Below are positions 4,808-17,836 of a stretch of 64,000 nt of DNA, piece by piece. Origin of the DNA: Lautropia sp. Lineage in GTDB: Bacteria; Pseudomonadota; Gammaproteobacteria; Burkholderiales; Burkholderiaceae_E. A model generated the notes under the pieces. That model did no database searches. It saw only the letters and a program-made list of their open reading frames with translations, and was not told the origin of the DNA. Each line of letters begins with the position of its first letter. The first letter of the stretch is position 1. A program made the position numbers and the translations under genes. Location of the stretch: assembly GCA_030528325.1 (NCBI GenBank), contig JAUMZD010000016.1, positions 1 through 64,000 on the forward strand, written 5' to 3'.

Positions 4808-5527
4808 TCAGGTGTCAGGTGATAAAGGCGTTGCCATGCCGGAGGCACGGCGAGGGTCTGAGACAAGGGCCCGCGTAATGCAATCGCTCAGTTCAGGATC
4901 CATCTGCATCCGTTCAAGGCACTGTTTCAGCCAGTTGAGGTCGCGGATCATGCCGCAGGCATCGTGATAGGCTCGGGCGACATGCTGGCCGTAGGCTGAT
5001 TCGGCTTTTTCCCATGCCTGCGAAGGAATCTCTCCCCAGTGGGCGATCATCATGGCCAGGTCGATGATGTCCCGGTTCAATGTGGATCGATCCTGACCGC
5101 GATCGGCATTGGCCAGCAGCTTTTCAGCGTACATGTCTGCCCTGCAGAGCACCGGCACGCTGAGAACCTCATCAACGCTGCCTCCGATTCTGATTCTCCC
5201 TTCGTTGACGATCTCAAGCTTGATCGGAACGCCATCGATATCGATGACGGTGCGGATGCCATAGCGATCGGCCCGGATCTCGCGTCGGTATGACAGCGGG
5301 CTTTTGAGCAGGCGCCCGAGGCTTTGCTGGGTGATGGTGTTTCTCAGCAATCGGTAGCCTTCGGTCGACGCACACAGAAAATCGATATCGCGTGATTCCC
5401 TGTACTCCGACAGGGCCATGACGATGGCGGTCCCGCCGCCAAAATAGCAGTCCGCTTCCTGAAGAAAGGCCGTGTCGAAGGCAGCCAGCACACGAGCAAT
5501 GCGTTGGTGATGGAGTCTTTCAAACAT
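4808..5527 (-). CDS. Nucleotidyltransferase of the AbiEii/DUF1814 family (type IV TA-like toxin)
   Basis: YFGGGTAIVMALSEYRESRDIDFL matches the Pol-beta-type hG[GS]...DhD signature. Its start overlaps the stop of the upstream small gene by 8 nt. Confidence 0.65.
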   Translation of the reverse strand: MFERLHHQRIARVLAAFDTAFLQEADCYFGGGTAIVMALSEYRESRDIDFLCASTEGYRLLRNTITQQSLGRLLKSPLSYRREIRADRYGIRTVIDIDGVPIKLEIVNEGRIRIGGSVDEVLSVPVLCRADMYAEKLLANADRGQDRSTLNRDIIDLAMMIAHWGEIPSQAWEKAESAYGQHVARAYHDACGMIRDLNWLKQCLERMQMDPELSDCITRALVSDPRRASGMATPLSPDT

Positions 5528-6610: not shown

Positions 6611-8359
6611 TCACCCCTGCAGCGCCTGAATCTCCCGCCATCCCAGCCCGAACTTTCGTAGGTACTTGCGCAGGCGGTCGGTGTCGTTGACCGCGCTGCG
6701 CTGGGTGCGGGACTGGTCGAAGAGGGTTCGGCCAGCTTCGGCCAGGCTCCGGCTTTGCCGGCAGGTGGCGATGACGGCTTCCAGTTGCAGGCGGTCGAAG
6801 CGGTCGAGTCCCGCCAGTGTCCCGGCGGGCAGCAGCTGTTCCAGCAGCGCGGGGGCTGGCAGGTTGTCGGCTTTTGCGCTGGCGGGTTGTGCCTCACGCC
6901 GGGGGGAGGGGGTGAGCGGGGCCGTTTCTGTCATGTCCTGCCACAGCCATTGCAGCCGGGCGATCTCGGCTTCGACCAGATCCGTGGTGATGCGTCCGCC
7001 TTCGGCGAGCGTGGCCAATCGGGTGATACTGGCCGACAGGTCGCGGAAGTTGCCCCGCCAGGGGGCATCAGGGCTCTGGGCGAACTGCAGGTAACGGGTT
7101 TTGGCCTCACGATTGAAGTGAGCGGCCTTGCCGCCTTCGGTGGGCATTCGGGCCAGCAGGTGGTCGATGTTGGGCTCCAGATCTTCGGGGCGTTCGGCCA
7201 GCCCGGGCAGGTGCCAGCTCCAGAGATTGATGCGGGCGAAGAGATCTTCGCGGAAGCGCCCGGCGGCCACTTCATGGCGCAGGTCGCGGTTGGTGCCGGC
7301 CATCAGCTGGAAATCGCTGTGCACCTCATGATCACTGCCCATCGGCAGAAAGCGTTTTTCCTCGACGGCCTTCAGCAGCATGGCCTGCTCGTCCTGACCC
7401 AGTTCGGCGATCTCGTCCAGAAACAGCACGCCCTGATGAGCGCTGCGAAGCAGTCCGGCCCGTTCGCTGGCTGCACCGGTGAAGGCGCCTCGTTTGTGAC
7501 CGAACAGAGTGCTGCTGGCGGTGTCACCGTGCAGGGTGGCACAGTTCACCTCGATGAAGTCGCCCTGCACCTGATGGCGGGCCTTTTTCAGCTCGTACAG
7601 CCGCCGGGCCAGGTGGGATTTGCCGGCACCGGTGGGCCCGGTCAGCAGGATCGGGGCTTTGGAGCGCACGGCCACCTGCTCGATCTCGTCGATCAGCCGG
7701 TTGAAGCGCGGGTTTCGGGTCGGAATGCCGTTCTTCAGATAATCCTGCGCCTGCTGGCGGGCGTGCTCGAAGCGCTGGGCCAGCCCGTCGTATCGGGACA
7801 GGTCGAGGTCGATCAGCGTGTAGGTGCCGACAGAGGCTGCACCTTTGGCCCGGGGGCTGGCGCTGTTGTCGTGATGCCCGTCGTGCCGGACTGGCTCGCG
7901 CGGCCCCTGGGCCAAGGGCAGCGATGGTCGCTGGCGGGGCGGCGAGCTTTGCAGCAGCACGCCCGGGATGAAACGGGCCTCCACCATCAGGAACAGACAG
8001 ATCTGTGCCACATGGGTGCCGGTCGTGATGTGTACCCAGTAGTCTTCGCGCTCGGTATCGAAGTGTTGGCGCTTCGCCCAGTCGTAGAGGTTGGCGTATA
8101 CCTCGCCGAAGTCCCAGGGGTCGGCCAGCGGCATCGGAATCGGATTCACCTGCGTGTGGGGCGACACCTCTGCGATGTCGGCCACGACCGTCTCCAGCAG
8201 TGCCTGGTACTTCGGTGCGTGGAACAGTTCCAGGCGGTCGATCGGATGAGGCTGCTGGACCATCGATAGCGTGGGGCGCCATTTCTTCCAGCGCCCGGCG
8301 CGCAGGCCGCTATCGAGCTGGGTACCGAGATAGCCGATGATGACGGTGCGTTTGTTCAT
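6611..8359 (-). CDS. rtcR: RtcR, sigma-54-dependent transcriptional activator with an N-terminal CARF domain
   Basis: MNKRTVIIGYLGTQLD... (CARF-like N-terminus), Walker A LLTGPTGAGKSHLAR, the GAFTGA motif of sigma-54 activators (KRGAFTGAASER), and a C-terminal HTH. Start taken at the ATG at 8359. Confidence 0.8.
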   Translation of the reverse strand: MNKRTVIIGYLGTQLDSGLRAGRWKKWRPTLSMVQQPHPIDRLELFHAPKYQALLETVVADIAEVSPHTQVNPIPMPLADPWDFGEVYANLYDWAKRQHFDTEREDYWVHITTGTHVAQICLFLMVEARFIPGVLLQSSPPRQRPSLPLAQGPREPVRHDGHHDNSASPRAKGAASVGTYTLIDLDLSRYDGLAQRFEHARQQAQDYLKNGIPTRNPRFNRLIDEIEQVAVRSKAPILLTGPTGAGKSHLARRLYELKKARHQVQGDFIEVNCATLHGDTASSTLFGHKRGAFTGAASERAGLLRSAHQGVLFLDEIAELGQDEQAMLLKAVEEKRFLPMGSDHEVHSDFQLMAGTNRDLRHEVAAGRFREDLFARINLWSWHLPGLAERPEDLEPNIDHLLARMPTEGGKAAHFNREAKTRYLQFAQSPDAPWRGNFRDLSASITRLATLAEGGRITTDLVEAEIARLQWLWQDMTETAPLTPSPRREAQPASAKADNLPAPALLEQLLPAGTLAGLDRFDRLQLEAVIATCRQSRSLAEAGRTLFDQSRTQRSAVNDTDRLRKYLRKFGLGWREIQALQG

Positions 8360-8401
8360 GCTGGCGGGTGCTTGGGGTTCTGGTCTTGATCCAGTCAACC
8401 A

Positions 8402-8626
8402 CTACTGGAACAGGTGCGCCCGATACTGGCCGGGTGTGACCTCGTCAAAACCCAGCGATGGCAGATCCTGGAAAATCCGACGGTTGATCTCTTTCAGGTG
8501 CCAGGCGTCGAATTTCCCTTTGACAGGATTCAGTCTGAGTTCGACAAGACGAGCCCATGTATGTCTGGCTTCAAGTACCTGTCGCCGCCCTGATGTCAGG
8601 GCCGGGTTTGGGTGTCGATCTTTCAC
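8402..8626 (-). pseudogene. 5' fragment of a Fic/Doc-family toxin gene (stops before the HPFx[DE]GNGR core)
   Basis: ...AWHLKEINRRIFQDLPSLGFDEVTPGQYRAHLFQ* resembles the Fic helix preceding the active-site motif. The ORF ends 43 nt from the rtcR start. Confidence 0.4.
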
Positions 8627-8955
8627 TCGGCGCCTTTGACGAATTGTGCGAGATCTATCTCACCCCGAATGAAGCGCTGGGCGTGTTCTTCATCAGTGGG
8701 ACTCAGCTGGAAGCCTTCCAGTGCGACCGAAGCGCGAGCGTAGTTGATGGCCTCCTCGCGTTCCCTGCGGTTGTGATGCCCGATGGGGACGGAGATCGTC
8801 TGAGGTGTTTTTCTGGCGGCGGAACGCTGGACGTATTCACGCATGAAGTCGCGCAAAACCTGTGCGGCAGGGCGGTGCTCAAGCTCAGCAGCCTCGGCGA
8901 ACTGCGCGCGCAAGTCTGCTTCTACCCGGAATGTCATGGTGACAGCTTTGTTCAT
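8623..8955 (-). CDS. FicA/VbhA-type antitoxin with an N-terminal RHH-like segment
   Basis: MNKAVTMTFRVEADLRAQFAEAAELEHRPAAQVLRDFMREYV (RHH) and the inhibitory S/TxxxE(G/N) motif in ASVALEGFQLSPTDEEHAQRFIRGEIDL. The start could also be the upstream ATG at 9030. Confidence 0.5.
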   Translation of the reverse strand: MNKAVTMTFRVEADLRAQFAEAAELEHRPAAQVLRDFMREYVQRSAARKTPQTISVPIGHHNRREREEAINYARASVALEGFQLSPTDEEHAQRFIRGEIDLAQFVKGAE

Positions 8956-9074
8956 GGGGACTTGTCTGTGTGTGATGGATAGGCGAACGTAATTACATTG
9001 TAATGAAAGTGTCATGACACCAGAAGGCATCCAGCTTTGGACTCAGGCCCCTGCTGCCTTCTCTTCATCACTGG

Positions 9075-9140
9075 ACTCACGATTGTATATATCTGATTTT
9101 CTATCAATATATCTAAAATTCTAAAATTGTTCTGTGCCAC
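9075..9140 (-). promoter_or_regulatory. AT-rich repeat-containing promoter or IHF-like region upstream of the ficA-like gene
   Basis: cgattgtatatatctgattttctatcaatatatctaaaattctaaaattg: an AT-rich island in a GC-rich genome with repeated atatatct and aaaattct units. Confidence 0.3.
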
Positions 9141-9398
9141 TTAGGCTGTACCGGGCAGAAGGTCTCATGGCCAGGGCAGGGAATCATACGAGCTTCCGGG
9201 CGCTGTCTTGGATGCCCCCTGTGGACGCATCTTCCTGCTCCCTGGAGATCGCGGAGCCGTTGCCAACACTTTGAATCCATTGAGGGCTCTGCGGGATTGG
9301 CATCCTGCGCTGATTGCCCGGAGGGGCTTTGTCCGGCCTGAAAAATTCTCGGCACGCGCCCTTCATGTCGTCGTCATGATGCATCCCCAATGCCAGGT

Positions 9399-9414
9399 TG
9401 GCACGGGTCTTGCT
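9399..9414 (+). promoter_or_regulatory. Sigma-54 (-24/-12) promoter, perfect consensus, oriented toward the SPFH and rtcB genes
   Basis: TTGGCACG-ggtc-TTGCT matches TGGCACG-N4-TTGCW exactly. Confidence 0.55.
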
Positions 9415-9512
9415 TGGTAATGCTCATCAACCACGGCTGCCTGGCTGACAGCAACGCTTTCGGTTCGGCCACCAGAGCAGAGGGCTTGGGGTTCGGGTCA
9501 GACCTGCCCCAG

Positions 9513-9714
9513 CGGTGCCGGTGTCCATCGTCTTCATCGGTGAAGAACGATGTGGACGGTCGGCATGCCGCCAGGTAGTCGTGGGAGAGGTGGTGCGCAG
9601 GTTGGCGTGTGAGCGCATGGCCGGTTCAAGTCCGGCGGCACCACAGGTGGCTCTGCTCGGGTTGGAGCAACGTCCTGAAAAGACGTCTGGCAGGTTCGAT
9701 TCCTGTCTTTGTAC
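9513..9714 (+). ncRNA. Candidate Y-RNA-like / tRNA-like noncoding RNA (two tandem tRNA-mimic modules) downstream of the sigma-54 promoter
   Basis: Module 1 (9513..9643): a 7-bp acceptor-like stem cggtgcc/ggcacca, a long bulged helix (gtccatcgtcttc-atcggt-gaagaacgatgtggac) and a canonical T-arm gccgg-TTCAAGT-ccggc. Module 2 (9650..9706): D-arm GCTC-11nt-GAGC, an anticodon-like arm acgtc-CTGAAAA-gacgt, and T-arm gcagg-TTCGATT-cctgt, with no pairing acceptor stem. Confidence 0.3.
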
Positions 9715-10032
9715 GACGGGCCGAAAGGCTGGTCGCAATCAGAGCAAATCTGGCTGGACAGGCAGGTGTCCGGGCGCAGGCGATGTTCTCCGGCGGGATC
9801 GCTTCCCGAAGGAAATGCGCGTGCCGTCCCGGCCCTGCCACCGCATCAGCGGCCTTGCGTGTCATGAACGGGTCGTGGTGATGGGTCGGGTGAAGGTGGT
9901 GAGGTACTGCCGCCAGAGTCTGGCTGCACACCCTGATCCCCATGGCACCCGCCGCTGATGCGGGTCTGACCGGATTCGTCCGACCACAGCAGGAATTGTC
10001 CAATCAGATAACTCGGCAAATCAACAAATCAG

Positions 10033-10106
10033 CAGATCAACGGATCAACGGATCAGCGGATCAGTGAGCCAGCGAACCAATTGAGCAACGAATCCGCTGA
10101 TCAGGA
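10033..10106 (+). promoter_or_regulatory. Tandem GGATCA(A/G)C repeats plus an inverted repeat (ATCAGCGGAT...ATCCGCTGAT) immediately upstream of the SPFH gene
   Basis: cagATCAACGGATCAACGGATCAGCGGATCAGtgag ... gaATCCGCTGATCAgg, followed by the purine-rich RBS region ggaaaggaagagaaagaaaagga. Confidence 0.35.
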
Positions 10107-10133
10107 AAGGAAGAGAAAGAAAAGGATTCCATC

Positions 10134-11309
10134 ATGAAAACCTACGGCTGGAAAAGCTTTCAAGTCAGCAAGCATGAGCGCGCACTGCTGGTGCGCAATG
10201 GCGACGTGGAGCGTCTGCTGCCGGCTGGCCGGCATCGGGTGAAGGGCTGGGGGGATGTGCTGAGCGTCGCCCGCCTGTCGGGCTCTGAATCCGCGTTCGA
10301 TCATCCGCTGGCCGAACAGATTCTGGATGCCGGGCAGCGCGATGGCGCCGGCATGACGGATTGGTGGCAGCACCTGATCGCGGTGAGGCTGGCCGATGAC
10401 GAGGTGGGCCTGCTGATCGAGGACGATCTGCTGACGGCAGTCTTGCCGCCGGGCACGCGCCGGTTGTTCTGGAAAGCGCCGCGGCCGATTCGTGTCGAGA
10501 CCGTCTCGCTGTTGGCGGGTGTGCAGATGGCGCCGGCACTGGTGGCCAGGCTTCAACCGCTGATGGCCCGTGCCGGAACAGATGCCGTGGGCGGTGTCCT
10601 GCTGGTGCAGGTGCCGCAACACCATGCGGGTCTGCTGCGCGTCGATGGCGTATTGCAGCCGCTGCTGTCGACGGGCGTGCATGGATTCTGGCGCTTCGGC
10701 CCGGATGTCTCGATCGAGGTGGTGGATCTGCGCACGCAGACCACCGAGGTCGGCGGGCAGGAAATCCTGTCGCGGGACAAGGTGAGCCTGCGGCTGAACC
10801 TGCTCGCCGGCTGGCGCTATCAGGATGTGGCGCGGGCTTTTGCCCAATGGCCTCAGCCGGCGGATCAGGTGTATCGTGAGCTGCAATTCGCATTGCGTGC
10901 GGTGGTTGGCGCCCAGACGCTCGATGGGCTGCTGTCGGACAAGGCGCAGATGGATGCGGCGCTGATGGTCCAGGTGGGGCCGCGTCTGGCAGCACACGGT
11001 ATCGTTCTGGAGAGCGTCGGCGTGAAGGACATCATCCTGCCGGGCGAGATGCGTACGCTGCTGGCCAAGGTGGTCGAGGCCGAGAAAGCGGCGCAGGCCA
11101 ACCTGATCCGCCGACGGGAGGAAACCGCAGCCACGCGTTCACTCCTGAACACGGCCAAGGTGATGGAAGACAACCCGGTGGCGCTGCGGATGAAGGAACT
11201 GGAAACGCTGGAGCGGGTGGCCGAGCGCATCGACCGGATTTCGGTGGTCGGCGGGCTGGATCAGGTGCTGGATGGGCTGGTGAAGCTGCGTCCGGCGAAG
11301 AAGGGATGA
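10134..11309 (+). CDS. SPFH/band-7 (slipin-like) domain protein
   Basis: 391 aa with a central SPFH-like region and a C-terminal coiled-coil (EAEKAAQANLIRRREETAATR...ALRMKELETLERVAERIDRI). Confidence 0.65.
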   Translation: MKTYGWKSFQVSKHERALLVRNGDVERLLPAGRHRVKGWGDVLSVARLSGSESAFDHPLAEQILDAGQRDGAGMTDWWQHLIAVRLADDEVGLLIEDDLLTAVLPPGTRRLFWKAPRPIRVETVSLLAGVQMAPALVARLQPLMARAGTDAVGGVLLVQVPQHHAGLLRVDGVLQPLLSTGVHGFWRFGPDVSIEVVDLRTQTTEVGGQEILSRDKVSLRLNLLAGWRYQDVARAFAQWPQPADQVYRELQFALRAVVGAQTLDGLLSDKAQMDAALMVQVGPRLAAHGIVLESVGVKDIILPGEMRTLLAKVVEAEKAAQANLIRRREETAATRSLLNTAKVMEDNPVALRMKELETLERVAERIDRISVVGGLDQVLDGLVKLRPAKKG

Positions 11310-11466
11310 CACAGGCATGAATGAAGACCGGGGCCAGCGAGTGTGCTCCGCTTTGGCAGGTTGACAAAGCATGACGGTGAAAAGTATGAGCATGCGGGAA
11401 ATGGAAAACACTACGACAACGAAAAAAGCAACAGCAACAGCAATGGAGAGGGCAGTGGCGACGGCA

Positions 11467-12774
11467 ATGGAATCGGATACGGAAACAGCCACGACAACGA
11501 CGAGGACATCCGGGCAAGCATCGGGCCTGTCGACGGTATTTCCTCATGACGATTCGCTACCATATAATCAGATCACGAATGACGGAGCCGTCCCGGTGAA
11601 AATGTGGACGAAAGGCGTGCCGGTGGAGGATGAAGCCCGGCAGCAGCTGGAAAACGTCGCGCGGCTGCCGATCGTGTTCCGCCATGTGGCGGCCATGCCG
11701 GATGTGCATTACGGTATCGGGGCCACGGTGGGCTCCGTGATTCCCACCTTTCGGGCCATCATCCCGGCGGCCGTGGGGGTGGATATCGGTTGCGGGATGA
11801 TCGCCTGCAAGACGACGTTGCGCGCAGCCGATCTGCCTGACAATCTTGGCCCGTTGCGGGCTGCGATCGAGCAGGCCGTGCCGCATGGTATCTCGCCACG
11901 GCGTGCCGGGCGGGACAAGGGGTCGTGGGAAACGCCACCGCCAGAGACCGATGCGGCCTGGGCCGGGCTGGTGGATGAGTTCCGGCAGATCTGTGAAAAA
12001 TATCCCCGCCTGGAGAAGACCAACAACTACACGCAGCTGGGTACGCTGGGTACCGGCAACCATTTCATCGAGATCTGTCTGGATCAGGATGGGGTGGTCT
12101 GGATCATGCTGCACAGCGGTTCCCGCGGGGTGGGTAATGCCATCGGCACGCATTTCATCGAACTGGCGAAGCAGGATGCCGAGCAGCATCAGCGAAACCT
12201 GCCGGACAGGGATCTGGCCTATTTCGAGGAAGGCAGCCGTTATTTCGGGGATTATGTGAAGGCGGTGGGCTGGGCGCAGCGCTTTGCCCGGGCCAATCGG
12301 GAAGTGATGATGCAGCGGGTGATCGCTGCGATGAGAAGGATCATCACGAAGCCATTCCAGACACATCTGGAAGCGGTCAACTGTCATCACAACTACGTGC
12401 AGAAGGAACGGCATTTCGGTGAGGACGTGTTCGTGACCCGCAAGGGGGCCGTATCCGCGCGTGAAGGCGAGCTGGGTATCATCCCGGGCAGCATGGGGGC
12501 CCGCAGCTACATCGTGCGTGGGAAGGGCAATCCGGAGAGTTTCATGAGTTGCAGTCACGGTGCCGGGCGGCGGATGAGCCGCAACCAGGCGAAGAAGCGC
12601 TTCACGGTGGCCGACCAGATCCGGGCCACCGAAGGGGTGGAATGCCGCAAGGATGCCGAGGTGATCGATGAAATCCCGATGGCCTACAAGGACATCGACG
12701 CCGTGATGGCGGCACAGCGTGACCTCGTGGATGTGGTCTACACGCTGAAGCAGGTGGTGTGCGTGAAGGGATGA
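11467..12774 (+). CDS. rtcB: RtcB RNA ligase (3'-phosphate/5'-hydroxyl); true start uncertain
   Basis: AVPVKMWTKGVPVE, MPDVHYGIGATVGSVIPT, GTGNHFIEI, SMSCSHGAGRRMSR. The track ORF starts at 11371 with a low-complexity Thr/Ala-rich extension. The conserved RtcB sequence begins near 11560. Confidence 0.8.
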   Translation: MESDTETATTTTRTSGQASGLSTVFPHDDSLPYNQITNDGAVPVKMWTKGVPVEDEARQQLENVARLPIVFRHVAAMPDVHYGIGATVGSVIPTFRAIIPAAVGVDIGCGMIACKTTLRAADLPDNLGPLRAAIEQAVPHGISPRRAGRDKGSWETPPPETDAAWAGLVDEFRQICEKYPRLEKTNNYTQLGTLGTGNHFIEICLDQDGVVWIMLHSGSRGVGNAIGTHFIELAKQDAEQHQRNLPDRDLAYFEEGSRYFGDYVKAVGWAQRFARANREVMMQRVIAAMRRIITKPFQTHLEAVNCHHNYVQKERHFGEDVFVTRKGAVSAREGELGIIPGSMGARSYIVRGKGNPESFMSCSHGAGRRMSRNQAKKRFTVADQIRATEGVECRKDAEVIDEIPMAYKDIDAVMAAQRDLVDVVYTLKQVVCVKG

Positions 12775-12793
12775 CATCACGCTCAGGAGGATT

Positions 12794-12837
12794 GGGTGGC
12801 CGGTTTGCAGCCCGCGACTGTCCTGCCGCCCAAGCTC
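12794..12837 (+). repeat. Terminal-arm fragment of the MITE-like repeat family
   Basis: ggccggtttgcagcccgcgactgtcctgccgcccaagctc matches the arm of the element at 19014..19176. Confidence 0.5.
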
Positions 12838-12919
12838 TTCAGACGGCTCGGTGTTGATGGGGCGGCCGGGCCGTGCTACGATGCACATCGTTTGTAACAC
12901 GTCTTGCGAGGGCATCATC

Positions 12920-13207
12920 ATGGCCGACTCCACTTTTACCTTCCGGGTCGATGAAGCCTTGAAAGCGGAGTTTTCCACGGCCGCCAGGGCGCTTGACCGT
13001 AGCGGTGCGCAGCTGTTGCGTGACTTCATGCGGGAGTTCGTGCAGAAACAACAGGAGGCGGCTGCGCATGACGCCTGGTTCCGTCGTCAGGTTCAACGCG
13101 GTCTGGATTCGGCCGAGGCTGGCCGTCTGATTCCGGCGGCTGAGGTCGAGGCGAACTTTGCGGCCCGGCGGGCGGCCACGCGCCGTCGTCTTGAAGGTGT
13201 GGAGTGA
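12920..13207 (+). CDS. parD: ParD-like RHH antitoxin
   Basis: MADSTFTFRVDEALKAEFSTAARALDRSGAQLLRDFMREFV; 4-nt overlap with the downstream toxin gene. Confidence 0.6.
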   Translation: MADSTFTFRVDEALKAEFSTAARALDRSGAQLLRDFMREFVQKQQEAAAHDAWFRRQVQRGLDSAEAGRLIPAAEVEANFAARRAATRRRLEGVE

Positions 13208-13500
13208 TGCGTCTGTGCTGGACGCCTGAGGCCGTTCGAGACCGCGAGGACATCTATGCCCATGTCGAGGCAGACAATCCGATTGCAGCCCTGGCACTTG
13301 ATGAGCTGTTTTCGGAGAAGGCCCGGTATCTGACCGATCATCCCGGCCTGGGGCGGATGGGGCGGGTGGCCGGGACGCGGGAGCTGGTCGTTCATCGGAA
13401 CTACGTTCTGATCTATGACCTGGCAGGGGATCAGGTTCGCGTGTTGCGTGTGTTGCATGCGGCGCGTCAATGGCCGCCTGAGCATTCGTCGACGCCGTGA
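13204..13500 (+). CDS. parE: ParE/RelE-family toxin
   Basis: 98 aa: ...IYAHVEADNPIAALALDELFSEKARYLTDHPGLGR...RELVVHRNYVLIYDLAGDQVRVLRVLHAARQWP. Confidence 0.6.
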   Translation: MMRLCWTPEAVRDREDIYAHVEADNPIAALALDELFSEKARYLTDHPGLGRMGRVAGTRELVVHRNYVLIYDLAGDQVRVLRVLHAARQWPPEHSSTP

Positions 13501-13524
13501 GGCCGGGTGGAGAGGGCGGCTGGC

Positions 13525-13586
13525 CGTGATGGCCGCCCAGCGTGACCTCGTGGATGTGGTGTACACCCTGAAGCAGGTCGTGTGCA
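13525..13586 (+). repeat. Duplicated copy of the last ~62 nt of rtcB (original at 12701..12762)
   Basis: ccgtgatggc(c/g)gc(c/a)cagcgtgacctcgtggatgtggt(g/c)tacac(c/g)ctgaagcaggt(c/g)gtgtgc. The copy encodes AAQRDLVDVVYTLKQVVC. Confidence 0.7.
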
Positions 13587-13598
13587 TAACACGCTCTA
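13585..13598 (+). repeat. 14-bp direct repeat CATAACACGCTCTA (left copy) flanking the MoxR-vWA module
   Basis: Identical to 16666..16679. Confidence 0.6.
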
Positions 13599-13659
13599 AA
13601 GGGTGATTTACCCTGCAAGGGGTATTTCACCATTCAGCGAAAAGTTTTCCGGATGAACC

Positions 13660-14724
13660 ATGCAAGCCAGCATTTCCCTGTCTCCCTCCCAGCTTTCCGA
13701 GTTCCTGCTCAACGTTGCCACCGTGCGGCCGGTGTTCATCTGGGGGCCGCCGGGCATCGGCAAGTCGGCCCTGGTCACGCAGTTTGCCGAGAGTGTCGGT
13801 CTGCCGTGCGTCTCGTTGCTGGGCAGCCAGCTGGCGCCCGAAGACCTGATGGGCGTGCCGCAGATCCGTGATGGGGTGACGCGATTCTGCCCGCCGGCGA
13901 TGATCGCCCGTGAGGAGCCTTACTGCCTGTTTCTGGATGAGTTGAATGCCTGCTCGCAGGATGTACAGAAGGCCTTCTACAGCCTGATCCATGATCGCCG
14001 GGTGGGGGAATACACATTGCCCGAAGGCTCGATCGTGATCGGCGCCGGCAATCGGGCGCAGGATTCGGCCATCGTCAAGCCGATGTCGTCGGCGCTGATG
14101 AATCGCATGGTGCATGTTCATCTGCGGGTCTCGGCCAGCGAATGGCTGCAGTGGGCCACGTCGGCCGGCCTGCATCCACTGGTCATCGATTATCTGAGCC
14201 AGCGTCCCGATCATCTCTGGAGTCAGCCGCCCAGGCATGAAGAACCGTTCTCCACGCCACGTGCCTGGCACATGCTCAGTGATGCACTGCATGGGTTCGG
14301 GGAACAGCTGCCGCCCGTGATGATGGAGGCGCTGGCAGCAGGGTGTCTGACACCACAGCATGCTGCCCAGTTCCGGGCCTTTGGCAAGCTGGCCGGGGAT
14401 CGACACCGGCTCGATGCGATCATCAAGGGGGATGCCCGCTGGCCGCACGATCCGGCCGACCGCGACCTGCTGTATTTCCTGGTGCAGGCGTTCCGTGCCC
14501 GCCTGTTGAAGGTGCTGCCGGCCGAGAAGAATCTGGTCAGCGCCGAGGAGCAGGCTTTCGTTCACCGCAGCAAGGCCATGCTGAAAGAAATCGCGCAGAT
14601 CAGCCTGGAGATGGCGCAGATCGTGGTCGCGCAGGAGGCGGACGCGGCCTTGCCAGCCTGGTACATGGTGGAGGTCGTGCGTGACCTGCCCCGGCTGGTC
14701 GAGAAGAAAGCCGAGGCGAAGTGA
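13660..14724 (+). CDS. MoxR-family AAA+ ATPase (AAA_5 / CbbQ-NorQ-like)
   Basis: Walker A IWGPPGIGKSALV, Walker B CLFLDELN, and a sensor region. Translationally coupled (ATGA overlap) to the downstream vWA gene. Confidence 0.8.
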   Translation: MQASISLSPSQLSEFLLNVATVRPVFIWGPPGIGKSALVTQFAESVGLPCVSLLGSQLAPEDLMGVPQIRDGVTRFCPPAMIAREEPYCLFLDELNACSQDVQKAFYSLIHDRRVGEYTLPEGSIVIGAGNRAQDSAIVKPMSSALMNRMVHVHLRVSASEWLQWATSAGLHPLVIDYLSQRPDHLWSQPPRHEEPFSTPRAWHMLSDALHGFGEQLPPVMMEALAAGCLTPQHAAQFRAFGKLAGDRHRLDAIIKGDARWPHDPADRDLLYFLVQAFRARLLKVLPAEKNLVSAEEQAFVHRSKAMLKEIAQISLEMAQIVVAQEADAALPAWYMVEVVRDLPRLVEKKAEAK

Positions 14725-16595
14725 TGGGGCGAGCCGGTTCACGAGCCAGGGCGGCCACACCGGCCTCGCGGCATTACGAGGACGGGCTGCGTCTTTTGAG
14801 GACACATCCGGTTTTCGAGCCGCTGTATGAGCGCGTCCGCTGGGTGCGCAACACCTTCATCCATCGCAGCGCCCTCATCTGGCCGTCGGATGAATGGCCG
14901 GCCGATGCGTGGCTGTGGCTCGGCCGTGACGAGCATCTGTATGTTCACCCGAAGCGTCTGGCCGAGCCTGAGGTCTGGGCGCATGTGATGGCGCGTGGGC
15001 TGCTCTATCACGCGCTTGAACTGTGGCAGCCCGATCGCGGCAACTGGGAGGCCTGGAGTGCAGCCTGCGATGTGGTGACGGCCCGCTTCTTGCAGGGCAT
15101 CAAGTTCTACCGAAGCCCCGAGGGGATGACGCTGCCGGATGATCTGCCCGCCTGGGATGAGGCGCGCTGGTATCGGCAGTTCTGCGAGGATGGCGTGCCC
15201 GATTGGGCCGCAGCCCTGTCGCTGGCAGGCCGGACGAGGCCGACGATGCAGGCGCCGGGCGATTGGCCCGACAGGCGCGCCGATCCGTTTCGGGTCAGCT
15301 GGCCGGAGGCGTTTTCGGCGGGCATCGCCGAATCCGTCAGGCAGGCGGTGGAGGTCGTGGCCGGCCTGCGTTCTTCGTTAGGTAGCGAATTGATCGCTTC
15401 TTCGGGCCAGGGAGGGCGTGGCGAACTGCGAGCCCTCACCCGGCAGGCCAGGGACTGGTTCATCAGCAGTTTTCCGCTACTGGGCGCGATGGTCGCCTCT
15501 TTCGAGTTCGTCGAGGATGCCGGGTTGTGCCGGCGAGAAGATATCCTGGTGGCGGCGGTCGATGAAAGCCTGCGCACGATCTATCTGAATCCGGCCGTGG
15601 GGCTGGACGAGCAGGAAAGCCGTTTCGTCATTGCGCACGAAGTGCTGCATGTGGCACTCAGGCATCTGCCGCGCCGCCAGGGGCGTGACCCGTGGCTTTG
15701 GAACGTGGCCTGTGATTTCGTCATCAACGACTGGCTGATCCAGATGCAGGTCGGCACGCCGCCTGCCTTGGGGTTGTTGTTCGATGAGGGCTTGCGAGGC
15801 CTGTCGGCCGAAGAGATCTATGACCGGATCGCACGTGATCTGCGGCGCATGAGAAAACTGCGCACACTGGCCGGCGGGCAATGCGACATGCTGGAGCGCC
15901 GTCTTGATACCCGGCAGGTACCGTTCACCGATCTCGATGCCTTCTGCCGCGAGCAGCTTGGCAAGGGGTTGTTGCTGCATCAGCAGCAGGGGCGGGGTTA
16001 TCTGCCGGCCGGATTGATCGAGGAGATTAACGCGCTGCTGCAACCGCCCATCCCGTGGGAGGTGCAGCTGGCCCGATGGTTCGATCATCATTTTCCGCCG
16101 CTGGAAACCCGGCGCACCTATGCGCGATTGTCGCGGCGCCAGTCGGCCACACCCGACATTCCACGCCCCCATCTGGGGGTGGATGAAAGCCGGCGGGCGG
16201 GCCGAACCTTCGGCGTGGTGCTCGATTCTTCCGGCTCGATGTCCCGGCAGATGCTGGCACGCGCGCTGGGCGCCATCGCCAGCTATGCCGAGGCGAAGGA
16301 GGTCGCGGCGGTTCGAGTGGTGTTCTGCGATGCGCGACCCCATGATGCCGGTTATCTGGCGGCGCATGACATTGCCGGTCGGGTGCGGGTGCATGGGCGA
16401 GGTGGCACCGTGCTGCAACCGGGCATCGACCTGTTGCAGGATGCGGCGGATTTCCCGCCGGACGGGCCGATCCTGATCATCACCGATGGTCAGTGCGATG
16501 TGCTGAAGATCCGGCGCAGCCATGCTTTCCTGATGCCGCCGGGCGCAGGCTTGCCCTTCGTGCCACGGGGCGAGGTGTTCCGGATGACGGACTGA
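14721..16595 (+). CDS. vWA-domain protein with an N-terminal HExxH (DUF2201_N-like putative metallopeptidase) domain, partner of the MoxR ATPase
   Basis: FVIAHEVLHVALRHL (HExxH), a MIDAS-type vWA motif VVLDSSGSM, and ...ILIITDGQCD. Confidence 0.7.
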   Translation: MMGRAGSRARAATPASRHYEDGLRLLRTHPVFEPLYERVRWVRNTFIHRSALIWPSDEWPADAWLWLGRDEHLYVHPKRLAEPEVWAHVMARGLLYHALELWQPDRGNWEAWSAACDVVTARFLQGIKFYRSPEGMTLPDDLPAWDEARWYRQFCEDGVPDWAAALSLAGRTRPTMQAPGDWPDRRADPFRVSWPEAFSAGIAESVRQAVEVVAGLRSSLGSELIASSGQGGRGELRALTRQARDWFISSFPLLGAMVASFEFVEDAGLCRREDILVAAVDESLRTIYLNPAVGLDEQESRFVIAHEVLHVALRHLPRRQGRDPWLWNVACDFVINDWLIQMQVGTPPALGLLFDEGLRGLSAEEIYDRIARDLRRMRKLRTLAGGQCDMLERRLDTRQVPFTDLDAFCREQLGKGLLLHQQQGRGYLPAGLIEEINALLQPPIPWEVQLARWFDHHFPPLETRRTYARLSRRQSATPDIPRPHLGVDESRRAGRTFGVVLDSSGSMSRQMLARALGAIASYAEAKEVAAVRVVFCDARPHDAGYLAAHDIAGRVRVHGRGGTVLQPGIDLLQDAADFPPDGPILIITDGQCDVLKIRRSHAFLMPPGAGLPFVPRGEVFRMTD

Positions 16596-16774: not shown

Positions 16775-17836
16775 ATGACGCCACCCGACATCTCTGTCCG
16801 TTTTCCCTGCCTCTCTCTGACGGTGCTGGCGGCGGCGCTGGCAATGGGCGCCTGCACCACCACCCAGCAGGAGACCGATCTGTCTTCCAGCTCGGGCACG
16901 AAGGTGGCGCATCGCGCGCCGATCATCCAGAAAACCTCGATGCAGGATCAGGCTCCGGCTGAGGTCGCTGCGACTGGGACGGATGCGAGCCAGGCTGGTG
17001 CGAATCAGGCAGGTACGAATCAGGCGGAGCCTGCCAGGATCGTGCCATCCACTCAGGCTGTCGTGCCGGCCCGGATGAGTGCGGCCGCTCAGGCGCCGGC
17101 TGCCGCCAGTGGCGTCGCAGCGGGTACGGCACTGGCCGGCAAGGAGGTGTCCGCGGGCAAGGCGATGGATTCGGATAAGCAGATGGTTGCAGGCGGGCAA
17201 GCGACCACGCCAGCGCCGTTCCGCTTCTCGCGTGCCGAGATGGAAGACATTGCCAACCCAGAGAAGCTCTCGTGGCGCATTTTTTACGACAAGCCTTCCA
17301 GCGGGCCGGATGCCCGCTGGTTCGATGCGGTCAAGCGGGGGGACCTCGACACCGTGAAGCAGCTGCTGGCCGCAGGTCAGAACATCGAGGCGAAGGACAA
17401 TGCCTCGCTGGGGCAGACCGCGCTGGGTTGGGCGGCTTTCATCGGCTATGAAGACATCGTCGATCACCTGATCGCGCAAGGGGCCGATCTGAATGCGACC
17501 GACCGTGGCGATGTCTACAACGTGCTGAAATCGGCCGTGCTGGGCAAGAATGTCGACATCGTGAAAAAGATTCACGCGCTGCTGAAGGACCGCACCGATC
17601 TGAACGACCAGACGGTGGAAAGTGATGGTGAGACCCTGGTGATGGTGGCCGCCAGCAACAACCGGCTGGAGATCGTCAAGTACCTGATCTCGCAGGGTGC
17701 CGATCTGAACCTGGTGTCACAGCAGAAGAATCACAGTGCGCTGTCCTTCGCCTGTGCCCGCCATTACCCCGAGATGCAGCAACTGCTGATCTCTCACGGG
17801 GCCATCAACCACCGCACGGGCAAGCCGGGCTGCTGA
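16775..17836 (+). CDS. Ankyrin-repeat protein with a lipoprotein-type signal peptide
   Basis: AGGAG lies 10 nt upstream of the ATG at 16775. MTPPDISVRFPCLSLTVLAAALAMGAC, then ankyrin repeats (GQTALGWAAFIGYEDIVDHLIAQGADLNATD; NNRLEIVKYLISQGADLN). Confidence 0.6.
   Translation: MTPPDISVRFPCLSLTVLAAALAMGACTTTQQETDLSSSSGTKVAHRAPIIQKTSMQDQAPAEVAATGTDASQAGANQAGTNQAEPARIVPSTQAVVPARMSAAAQAPAAASGVAAGTALAGKEVSAGKAMDSDKQMVAGGQATTPAPFRFSRAEMEDIANPEKLSWRIFYDKPSSGPDARWFDAVKRGDLDTVKQLLAAGQNIEAKDNASLGQTALGWAAFIGYEDIVDHLIAQGADLNATDRGDVYNVLKSAVLGKNVDIVKKIHALLKDRTDLNDQTVESDGETLVMVAASNNRLEIVKYLISQGADLNLVSQQKNHSALSFACARHYPEMQQLLISHGAINHRTGKPGC

Follow-up and report, generated by a model that had tools for sequence, protein, structure and literature searches.

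A consensus sigma-54 promoter motif and a conserved leader with tRNA-like modules ahead of an SPFH–rtcB operon in Lautropia sp.

The stretch of Lautropia sp. DNA analysed here (64 kb of contig JAUMZD010000016.1, GenBank assembly GCA_030528325.1; hereafter the window) carries an operon encoding a stomatin-like SPFH/Band-7 protein and the RNA ligase RtcB, a divergently oriented gene for the sigma-54 activator RtcR and, between them, an exact match to the sigma-54 (RpoN) promoter consensus that is followed by a long structured leader (Table 1). We describe the motif, the leader behind it and the conservation of both across related loci. RtcR scored 241.6 bits against the Pfam RtcR family and 165.7 bits against Sigma54_activat, passed the cut-off of the NCBIfam RtcR equivalog NF038308 (783.5 bits, cut-off 650) and has the GAFTGA sigma-54 contact loop in its translation. 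For the SPFH protein, a 100% identical counterpart exists in a metagenome-assembled genome, annotated as ‘slipin family protein [Lautropia sp.]’, and stomatins in PDB matched it at E ~1e-18.

Table 1. Features of the SPFH–rtcB locus, with positions numbered from the first base of the window.
Feature	Position	Strand	Description and basis
rtcR	6611–8359	−	Sigma-54 enhancer-binding activator: CARF-like RtcR N-domain, AAA+ domain with GAFTGA loop, C-terminal HTH region
AT-rich block	9080–9129		Putative RtcR upstream activating sequence, inferred
Sigma-54 promoter motif	9399–9414	+	−24 TGGCAC (GG 9400–9401), −12 TTGCT (GC 9412–9413); exact consensus
Predicted transcription start	9424–9426	+	Inferred; starts usually lie 12 nt past the −12 GC
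5′ domain	9431–9584	+	15-bp closing stem, 9431–9445 with 9570–9584; minimum-free-energy folds
tRNA-like module 1, reduced	9590–9645	+	7-bp acceptor-like stem GUGGUGC/GCACCAC, D-like hairpin, T arm
tRNA-like module 2, b7a-tRNA-type cloverleaf	9641–9714	+	D stem 9650–9653 with 9665–9668, anticodon arm 9670–9686, T arm 9690–9706
GAAA-tetraloop hairpin	9715–9734	+	Directly after tRNA-like module 2; fold
3′ domain	9735–9990	+	Perfect 12-bp stem, 9841–9852 with 9952–9963
A/C-rich octamer repeat	10016–10064	+	ATCAACGG, 5.5 copies, Tandem Repeats Finder; mostly unstructured spacer before the ribosome-binding site
Shine-Dalgarno region and SPFH start codon	10120–10136	+	AAAAGGA, purine-rich; start codon at 10134; read from sequence
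Stomatin-like SPFH/Band-7 (‘slipin’) protein	10134–11309	+	391 aa; Pfam Band_7 78.2 bits
RtcB RNA ligase	11371–12774	+	467 aa; Pfam RtcB 438.3 bits; NCBIfam RtcB-family models also matched

The promoter motif reads TGGCACGGGTCTTGCT, with a T at 9398, and agrees with the sigma-54 consensus at all 12 specified positions, the spacing from GG to GC being exactly 10 nt. When either strand of the window was searched for TGGCACG-N4-TTGCW, this was the sole match without a mismatch, and dinucleotide-preserving shuffles contained a mean of 0.03 matches (3 of 100 shuffles had one). An earlier note on this DNA had claimed a mismatch-free sigma-54 site on the strand of SPFH and rtcB, about 720 nt ahead of them, and had expected it to be the top RpoN site in the window. 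Both sequence and strand were borne out, the next-best site carries one mismatch, and the distance is a fair one, since it comes to 735 nt from the start of the motif to the SPFH ATG and to 709 nt from the predicted transcription start. The best other site in the window (TGGCACGATCCTGGCA, 17032–17047 (−)) sits within long open reading frames (ORFs) on both strands, and its −12 region, TGGCA, is a variant found in many orthologous rtc promoters.

Transcription from sigma-54 promoters usually starts 12 nt after the −12 GC, and by this geometry the transcript would begin near 9425; the conserved 5′ domain of the leader starts 6 nt beyond that point. A scan of 8300–13000 found no sigma-70-like promoter on the + strand and no intrinsic terminator within the leader; each of the two terminator-like matches is either beyond the leader or on the opposite strand. 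The scan therefore lends no support to an internal start or an attenuator in the leader.

Conservation was assessed in 80 genomic loci drawn from an alignment of SPFH relatives, mostly from Burkholderiales, Rhodocyclales and Pseudomonas with a few from Enterobacterales, which were scanned for the family motif TGGCA(C/T)(G/A)-N4-T(T/C/G)GC(A/T). A divergent rtcR was found in 54 of the 80 loci and the motif in every one of these 54, so that no locus had rtcR without the motif; conversely, the motif was absent from all 22 loci that lack rtcR, over the 1.5 kb scanned upstream of SPFH. Four loci carried the motif without a detectable rtcR, two of them cut by a contig end. Within the 54 rtcR loci, the motif lies 349–946 nt from the SPFH start (median 524) and, in most, 130–165 nt from the rtcR start (range 107–280). 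The family consensus, C-TGGCACG-N4-T(c/t/g)GC(A/T)-ATA, is selected for by the scan itself; the fixed position of the motif and its association with rtcR are independent of that selection. This co-occurrence, together with the GAFTGA loop and the equivalog score, supports a sigma-54 promoter served by RtcR, as the earlier note had it.

Sequencing-run assemblies provided three closer relatives (SPFH 87% identical), two of which (L081 and L082) span the promoter region and retain the perfect consensus TGGCACGGGACTTGCT. Nucleotide similarity between the window and these two sequences starts 12–26 nt upstream of the motif, and farther upstream they have diverged past recognition. Conservation thus sets in near the motif, as expected if the promoter leads into a functional transcript. 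The same architecture was present in Pseudomonas species, Burkholderia and Acidovorax among the retrieved loci. In Erwinia, Lonsdalea and Brenneria (L054, L058 and L064), the leader is shorter, at ~350 nt, has one T arm only and gives no match to the model of the 5′ domain described below; it is a reduced RNA variant behind the same RtcR promoter.

In every case, the leader immediately precedes SPFH on the same strand, and this holds also for the 22 loci without rtcR (L004, L006, L010–L012, L020, L023, L026, L027, L029, L030, L033, L036, L040, L046, L050, L062, L066, L073, L075, L077 and L078). In most of these, the 5′ domain begins right behind the stop codon of an HNH-endonuclease gene (L004, 2926–3486), and 4–13 ordinary tRNA genes of many specificities are found upstream of the HNH gene on the same strand, giving the order tRNA array, HNH gene, leader RNA and SPFH.

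Upstream of the motif, rtcR is indeed encoded in divergent orientation, as the earlier note had claimed, with the refinement that its start codon is 1040 nt away and not adjacent, because a VbhA-like cassette intervenes. The cassette comprises two small, overlapping ORFs oriented like rtcR: 8623–8955 (−) encodes a 110-aa protein with a VbhA antitoxin domain at its C-terminus, and 8402–8626 (−) a 74-aa product, perhaps a truncated toxin, with weak likeness to the N-terminal residues 31–70 of VbhT, a Fic toxin. The gap between the cassette and the rtcR start is just 42 nt, so that rtcR may be transcribed from a cassette promoter and is probably co-transcribed with the cassette. L081 has a VbhA-like gene as in the window; in L082, rtcR and the promoter are 335 nt apart and there is no cassette, which marks the cassette as an insertion specific to the lineage. 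A palindrome, TACATTGTAATG, occurs near 8993–9004.

Between the cassette and the motif (8956–9398), the only AT-rich stretch (65–85% AT) is the block at 9080–9129, whose motifs (GTATATC..GATT, then ATATC-N5-6-TTCTA) recur upstream of the promoter in L081 (395–450) and L082 (4920–4980). Most orthologs have an AT-rich interval of ~140 nt from rtcR to the motif, with clade-specific repeats beside the rtcR start, in a position equivalent to that of the block in the window. An IHF (integration host factor) site between enhancer and sigma-54 promoter is common and not obligatory; most orthologs have an IHF-like WATCAANNNNTTR ~45–60 nt upstream of the motif. The ortholog repeats are plausible RtcR sites, and the block at 9080–9129 would most likely be the RtcR enhancer in the window, to judge from composition, position and recurrence. 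A 2016 paper counted RtcR among the regulators with unknown binding sites.

Downstream of the motif, the long structured leader implied by the earlier note is supported: the stretch between 9425 and the ATG (709 nt) is much more stably folded than its shuffles (z = −6.75), and the claim can be extended from a plain 5′ untranslated region (UTR) to a conserved composite non-coding RNA of ~560 nt. It comprises, in this order, a 5′ domain, two tRNA-like modules (the first reduced, the second a cloverleaf), a hairpin with a GAAA loop and a 3′ domain, and covariation in relatives supports these parts. Pairing was compared with slid controls, in which pairing partners were shifted along the alignment. 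At E ≤ 1, Rfam searches of the window leader and of seven orthologous loci returned only tRNA and sub-threshold YrlA matches.

Two hairpins sit inside the closing stem of the 5′ domain, one GGGG/CCCC and one long; at the base of the long one, GGUGC, invariant in the family, pairs with GCAUGCC (GCAUGCCGC, 9563–9571). Across 54 sequences (alignment A3), 93.7% of cells pair compared with 39–55% in the slid controls, the covariation score is 0.44 against 0.06–0.16, and 12 of 18 pairs show compensatory changes. A covariance model of the domain (R2) found 9448–9580 as its sole match in the window (50.3 bits, the window being in its training set), and among the 22 rtcR-less loci, on which it was not trained, it matched 20 exactly once and in the right place, at 30–75 bits.

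Two tRNA-like modules follow. In almost all leaders, a pair of canonical T arms (GCGGG-TTCGANT-CCCGC) occurs ~72 nt apart, at +160–220 and +235–295 from the motif, and ARAGORN reports one or two ‘tRNAs’ on the family leaders, with erratic anticodons of 2 nt or 4 nt among them. Module 1 of the window has a canonical T arm (GCCGG-UUCAAGU-CCGGC, 9620–9636) and no anticodon arm, and the minimum-free-energy fold predicts exactly this shape. An acceptor-like stem of 6–7 bp, varied in sequence, is present at this place in 51 of 52 leaders. The module is a full cloverleaf in Pseudomonas; in Burkholderia and Rhodocyclales it consists of an acceptor stem, a short linker and a T arm, and Comamonadaceae and the window have an intermediate form.

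Module 2 precedes SPFH by 420 nt and RtcB follows SPFH, an arrangement shared by ~80 loci. In the window, it has a 7-nt anticodon loop (CUGAAAA) and an acceptor stem of 3 bp only, and it scored 27.4 bits against the Rfam tRNA model (gathering score 29), compared with 36–54 bits for its orthologs. In a 56-sequence alignment of the family cloverleaf, 88.4% of cells pair compared with 34–45% in the slid controls, with a covariation score of 0.38 against ~0.09 and compensatory changes in all five anticodon-stem pairs and in the inner acceptor pairs; the D and T arms hardly vary, and the acceptor often lacks its three outer pairs. A GNRA or UUCG tetraloop often takes the place of the anticodon loop, which also varies freely, and this freedom suggests that it is the shape of the tRNA body that matters, not decoding or cleavage of the anticodon loop. 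A covariance model of the cloverleaf (R1) gave 64–81 bits for SPFH-proximal elements of untrained loci; its separation is not clean, in that b7a-type elements (see below) score 64–86 bits and ordinary tRNAs 28–62 bits.

The junction of the two modules is itself patterned. In many Comamonadaceae and Rhodocyclales leaders (including those of L007, L008, L013, L015, L017, L018, L047, L048, L053, L060 and L061), the acceptor-like stem of module 1 runs into N-CCA, and the 5′ strand of module 2 comes immediately after (for example CGTGCC-A-CCA-CTGGTAGCTCA). Such a pattern would be expected of a module 1 that matures to a CCA end like that of a tRNA. The corresponding junction in the window is CACCACAGG, the CCA apparently having been absorbed into the stem.

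Orthologs keep the hairpin that follows module 2 in this position, often with a GNRA tetraloop. The 3′ domain of the window folds with z = −5.2 and has a core in common with the Comamonadaceae leaders, in which 18 of 28 pairs are compensatory (alignment A5). In 33 other loci (alignment A4), the equivalent domain spans ~200–250 nt, 94.1% of cells pair compared with 35–44% in slid controls, and the covariation score reaches 0.56 against 0.07–0.09; eight of the nine pairs of its closing 9-bp stem (CGCCGGCCC/GGGCCGGCG) show compensatory changes, and an outer GCCGG/CCGGC stem ends 10–25 nt ahead of the ribosome-binding region. The octamer repeat behind the domain differs in unit and copy number among the window, L081 and L082, with a much longer array in L082, and Comamonadaceae have a short purine- and C-rich spacer in its place; purine-rich tracts resembling AAAAGGA also precede the SPFH starts of orthologs. 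ORFs that overlap the leader (e.g. 9515–9958 in the window and a 221-aa gene in L082) were judged, without a formal coding test, to be spurious, because they overlap the tRNA-like modules and covarying stems and because close relatives differ there by large indels.

Behind rtcB, an 885-nt gap holds a 264-aa ORF on the minus strand (12839–13633) without a family match, followed by genes for a MoxR-like AAA ATPase (13660–14724 (+)) and a DUF2201_N/VWA-like protein (14721–16595 (+)). The same two genes directly follow rtcB in L081, so that the operon of the window seems to carry an insertion, and the transcript may extend into them. RtcA was not among the genes scanned downstream of rtcB, the remaining window not having been scanned for it, and no TROVE/Ro domain was found among the neighbouring proteins scanned. 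A collection of viral sequences yielded a single SPFH relative, and a phage origin is therefore not supported. About 1 kb past the 3′ end of rtcR lies a gene for an AbiEii-type nucleotidyltransferase toxin (4808–5527 (−), Pfam 91 bits), which, with the VbhA-like cassette, suggests a neighbourhood rich in toxin–antitoxin and defence genes. Among the other loci, that of Acidovorax benzenivorans (L007) has an RNase P RNA gene (205 bits, 1298–1637 (−)) just downstream of rtcR, and that of Allofranklinella (L001) a weak tmRNA/tRNA-like match (22.8 bits, 5387–5452 (+)) between SPFH and a distant rtcB.

Expression of E. coli rtcBA and of Salmonella rsr–yrlBA–rtcBA reportedly depends on RtcR and sigma-54, in work attributed to Genschik et al. 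1998, Hughes et al. 2020 and Kotta-Loizou et al. 2022. Such control is established for both operons (PMC7790460; PMC9650030), and the promoter described here is an ordinary instance of it. The likeness extends to the divergent rtcR (CARF-AAA+-HTH), the −24/−12 promoter and the RtcB cargo and, in Salmonella, to the tRNA-like YrlA/YrlB encoded between promoter and rtcB. The locus in the window, by comparison, has a stomatin-like SPFH partner, no Ro60/Rsr, YrlA or rtcA among the scanned neighbours, an rtcR that is 1 kb off behind the VbhA-like cassette and a far larger, multi-domain RNA of ~560 nt. An SPFH gene embedded in an rtc locus is also known from Pseudomonas aeruginosa (PA14_60630, PaFlo8; PMC13086221).

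YrlA itself (Rfam RF02553) shares with the leader the tRNA-like T and D arms and the setting in RtcR-controlled RNA-repair operons. However, the four orthologs with a YrlA match score 25–35 bits against a gathering score of 69, the window has no match at E ≤ 1, the modules follow the normal tRNA order whereas YrlA is permuted (T-acceptor-D), no Ro-binding stem was identified in the leader, and no Ro60 gene was found nearby among the scanned proteins. On the Rfam scores, we reject membership of the leader in the YrlA family. The sub-threshold matches (L070 3613–3664, L001 3377–3485, L080 3635–3710 and L007 3597–3656) span the junction of the modules, reaching from the module 1 T arm into the module 2 D arm, which is the T-acceptor-D order of YrlA and hints that YrlA and the module tandem may be evolutionarily related.

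A closer counterpart to module 2 is described in a 2018 preprint on YrlA structure (10.1101/312249), which mentions the predicted b7a-tRNA, or ‘band 7-associated tRNA’, beside Band-7 and RtcB genes, credits the prediction to Burroughs and Aravind 2016 and reports no experimental validation at that time. As described there, a Band-7 gene stands beside RtcB with a predicted RNA strongly resembling tRNA, and the element at 9641–9714 and its orthologs fit this description. The window copy differs in being divergent, with its 3-bp acceptor; the comparison follows the citing description, and Rfam has no such family. No second paper using the name b7a-tRNA was found in the literature searched. Several large structured bacterial RNAs (OLE, GOLLD, ROOL and raiA) are likewise several hundred nucleotides long with covarying multi-helix folds, and OLE is associated with a membrane-type protein, much as the leader adjoins the gene of a membrane- or scaffold-type protein. 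Unlike these, the leader is built on tRNA-like modules and sits at the head of an operon, and no relationship to them by sequence or in Rfam was found.

Taken together, we consider it probable that the motif is the −24/−12 promoter of an RtcR-controlled RNA-repair operon that works through the following four-step mechanism, proposed from sequence comparison. RtcR would bind upstream of the motif, where the block at 9080–9129 is its most likely enhancer; its CARF-like domain would sense RNA damage, upon which RtcR would use ATP to open the complex of the sigma-54 holoenzyme and transcription would start near 9425. A single transcript would then comprise the ~560-nt structured RNA, the unstructured A/C-rich spacer, SPFH and rtcB. 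Enzymes of tRNA processing, e.g. RNase P, would probably recognise the tRNA-like modules and free a stable RNA, an expectation based on the T- and D-arm features that the modules keep and on the N-CCA at their junction in many orthologs. Once freed, this RNA would act together with RtcB and the SPFH scaffold, by analogy with Ro60 and Y RNA in Salmonella rsr–yrlBA–rtcBA.

Several observations weigh against this reading. The same leader RNA is found in the 22 loci that have neither rtcR nor the promoter motif, so that the RNA is independent of sigma-54, and another promoter, within or upstream of the leader, may exist. The putative enhancer is 270–320 nt from the −24 element, compared with ~100–150 nt in the orthologs, and a two-gene cassette splits rtcR from the promoter. 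No IHF consensus (WATCAANNNNTTR) is present in 8956–9398 of the window, which has one site with a single mismatch, 123 nt upstream, whereas the E. coli promoter is described with an IHF site (PMC9650030). Finally, module 2 of the window is a weak member of its family: it scores 43.6 bits with R1, in the range of ordinary tRNAs, although R1 was trained on it, its acceptor measures 3 bp, and it does not reach the gathering score of the Rfam tRNA model. It is a divergent family member, whose assignment rests mainly on its position between conserved domains because the R1 score lies within the tRNA range.

Of the readings that compete with an RtcR-driven operon releasing a stable RNA, one accepts the promoter and takes the ~700-nt region only as a cis-acting 5′ UTR that governs stability, processing or translation of the SPFH–rtcB mRNA, with no RNA being freed. 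The absence of a terminator between the RNA and SPFH, the closing stems of the ortholog 3′ domains that end 10–25 nt before the ribosome-binding region and the invariable placement of the leader directly ahead of SPFH on the same strand, even without rtcR, would all fit. We nevertheless regard it as unlikely, given that the ribosome-binding site lies outside the conserved stems, behind an unstructured A/C- or purine-rich spacer, and that no alternative terminator/antiterminator pair is visible. Moreover, both modules retain the T- and D-arm consensus read by enzymes that process or modify tRNA, N-CCA stands after module 1 and directly before module 2 in many orthologs as it does in tRNA precursors, and the related YrlA RNAs of rsr–rtcBA operons are stable and act in trans (PMC4201824).

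The modules could instead be bait or sensor, cut by a stress- or phage-activated anticodon nuclease so that fragments with cyclic phosphate ends feed the CARF domain of RtcR or the nuclease is soaked up, with the leader thereby tuning its own promoter. In Salmonella, the inducer of RtcR is tRNA halves ending in 2′,3′-cyclic phosphate, and YrlA has been proposed to be a competitive nuclease inhibitor (PMC7790460); module 2 of the window also keeps a canonical anticodon loop of 7 nt. The GNRA or UUCG tetraloops and freely variable loops of the orthologs, their many odd ARAGORN anticodons and the lack of an anticodon arm in module 1 of the window make such a role improbable.

That the motif is fortuitous or vestigial, with SPFH–rtcB driven by another promoter in or upstream of the leader, is suggested by the 22 related loci that have the leader–SPFH arrangement without rtcR or motif, by the missing IHF-like site and by the displacement of rtcR by 1 kb, but seems very improbable against a chance expectation of 0.03 matches, a perfect association with rtcR (54 against 0) mirrored by an equally perfect absence from rtcR-less loci, the exact consensus retained by L081 and L082 despite upstream divergence and a scan of 8300–13000 (+) that found no sigma-70-like promoter. 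We reject as scarcely credible the reading of 9642–9714 as a genuine tRNA-Phe(GAA) gene, an ordinary tRNA driven by the promoter, for which the ARAGORN label ‘tRNA-Phe GAA’ and the canonical look of its anticodon loop, D arm and T arm speak, since the element falls short of the Rfam gathering score for tRNA, can form 3 acceptor pairs instead of 7 bp, lacks CCA or a proper discriminator context behind it and has orthologs with all kinds of ‘anticodon’, tetraloops and ‘anticodons’ of 2 or 4 nt.

Beyond the RtcR-controlled operon, we put forward a bolder view, possible and decidedly tentative, in which the whole 450–700-nt region between promoter and SPFH would be one uncatalogued multi-domain RNA, the RNA subunit of a vault-like or Ro/Y-like RNA-repair particle. 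The tRNA-like element would then be just one portion of a larger whole that runs from the 5′ domain through both tRNA-like modules and a GNRA hairpin to a 3′ domain closed over a long range. Such an RNA would be inherited together with a cage-forming stomatin-like protein and RtcB in Burkholderiales, Rhodocyclales, Pseudomonas and some Enterobacterales, and would come either under the control of RtcR and sigma-54 or downstream of tRNA gene arrays.

In conclusion, the promoter adds a well-supported case of RtcR/sigma-54 control that comes with a built-in comparative control, the motif being present with rtcR and missing without it. Both the operon type and the tRNA-like RNA are already known as predictions, given that the literature describes RtcR/sigma-54 rtc operons and, as cited in the preprint, the b7a-tRNA prediction, to which the tRNA-like part of the leader would correspond. 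The main value of this analysis is thus a precise map of the RNA that the promoter would transcribe, with coordinates, covarying helices and two covariance models (R1 and R2), and the interesting part is the extent of that RNA, whose large flanking domains have no Rfam family. As the same architecture occurs in Pseudomonas, Burkholderia and Acidovorax, and an SPFH gene lies in the rtc locus of P. aeruginosa, tractable organisms are at hand for direct tests of what is repaired by bacterial RtcB systems, why a tRNA mimic is needed and what role a stomatin-like protein plays in an RNA-repair operon.

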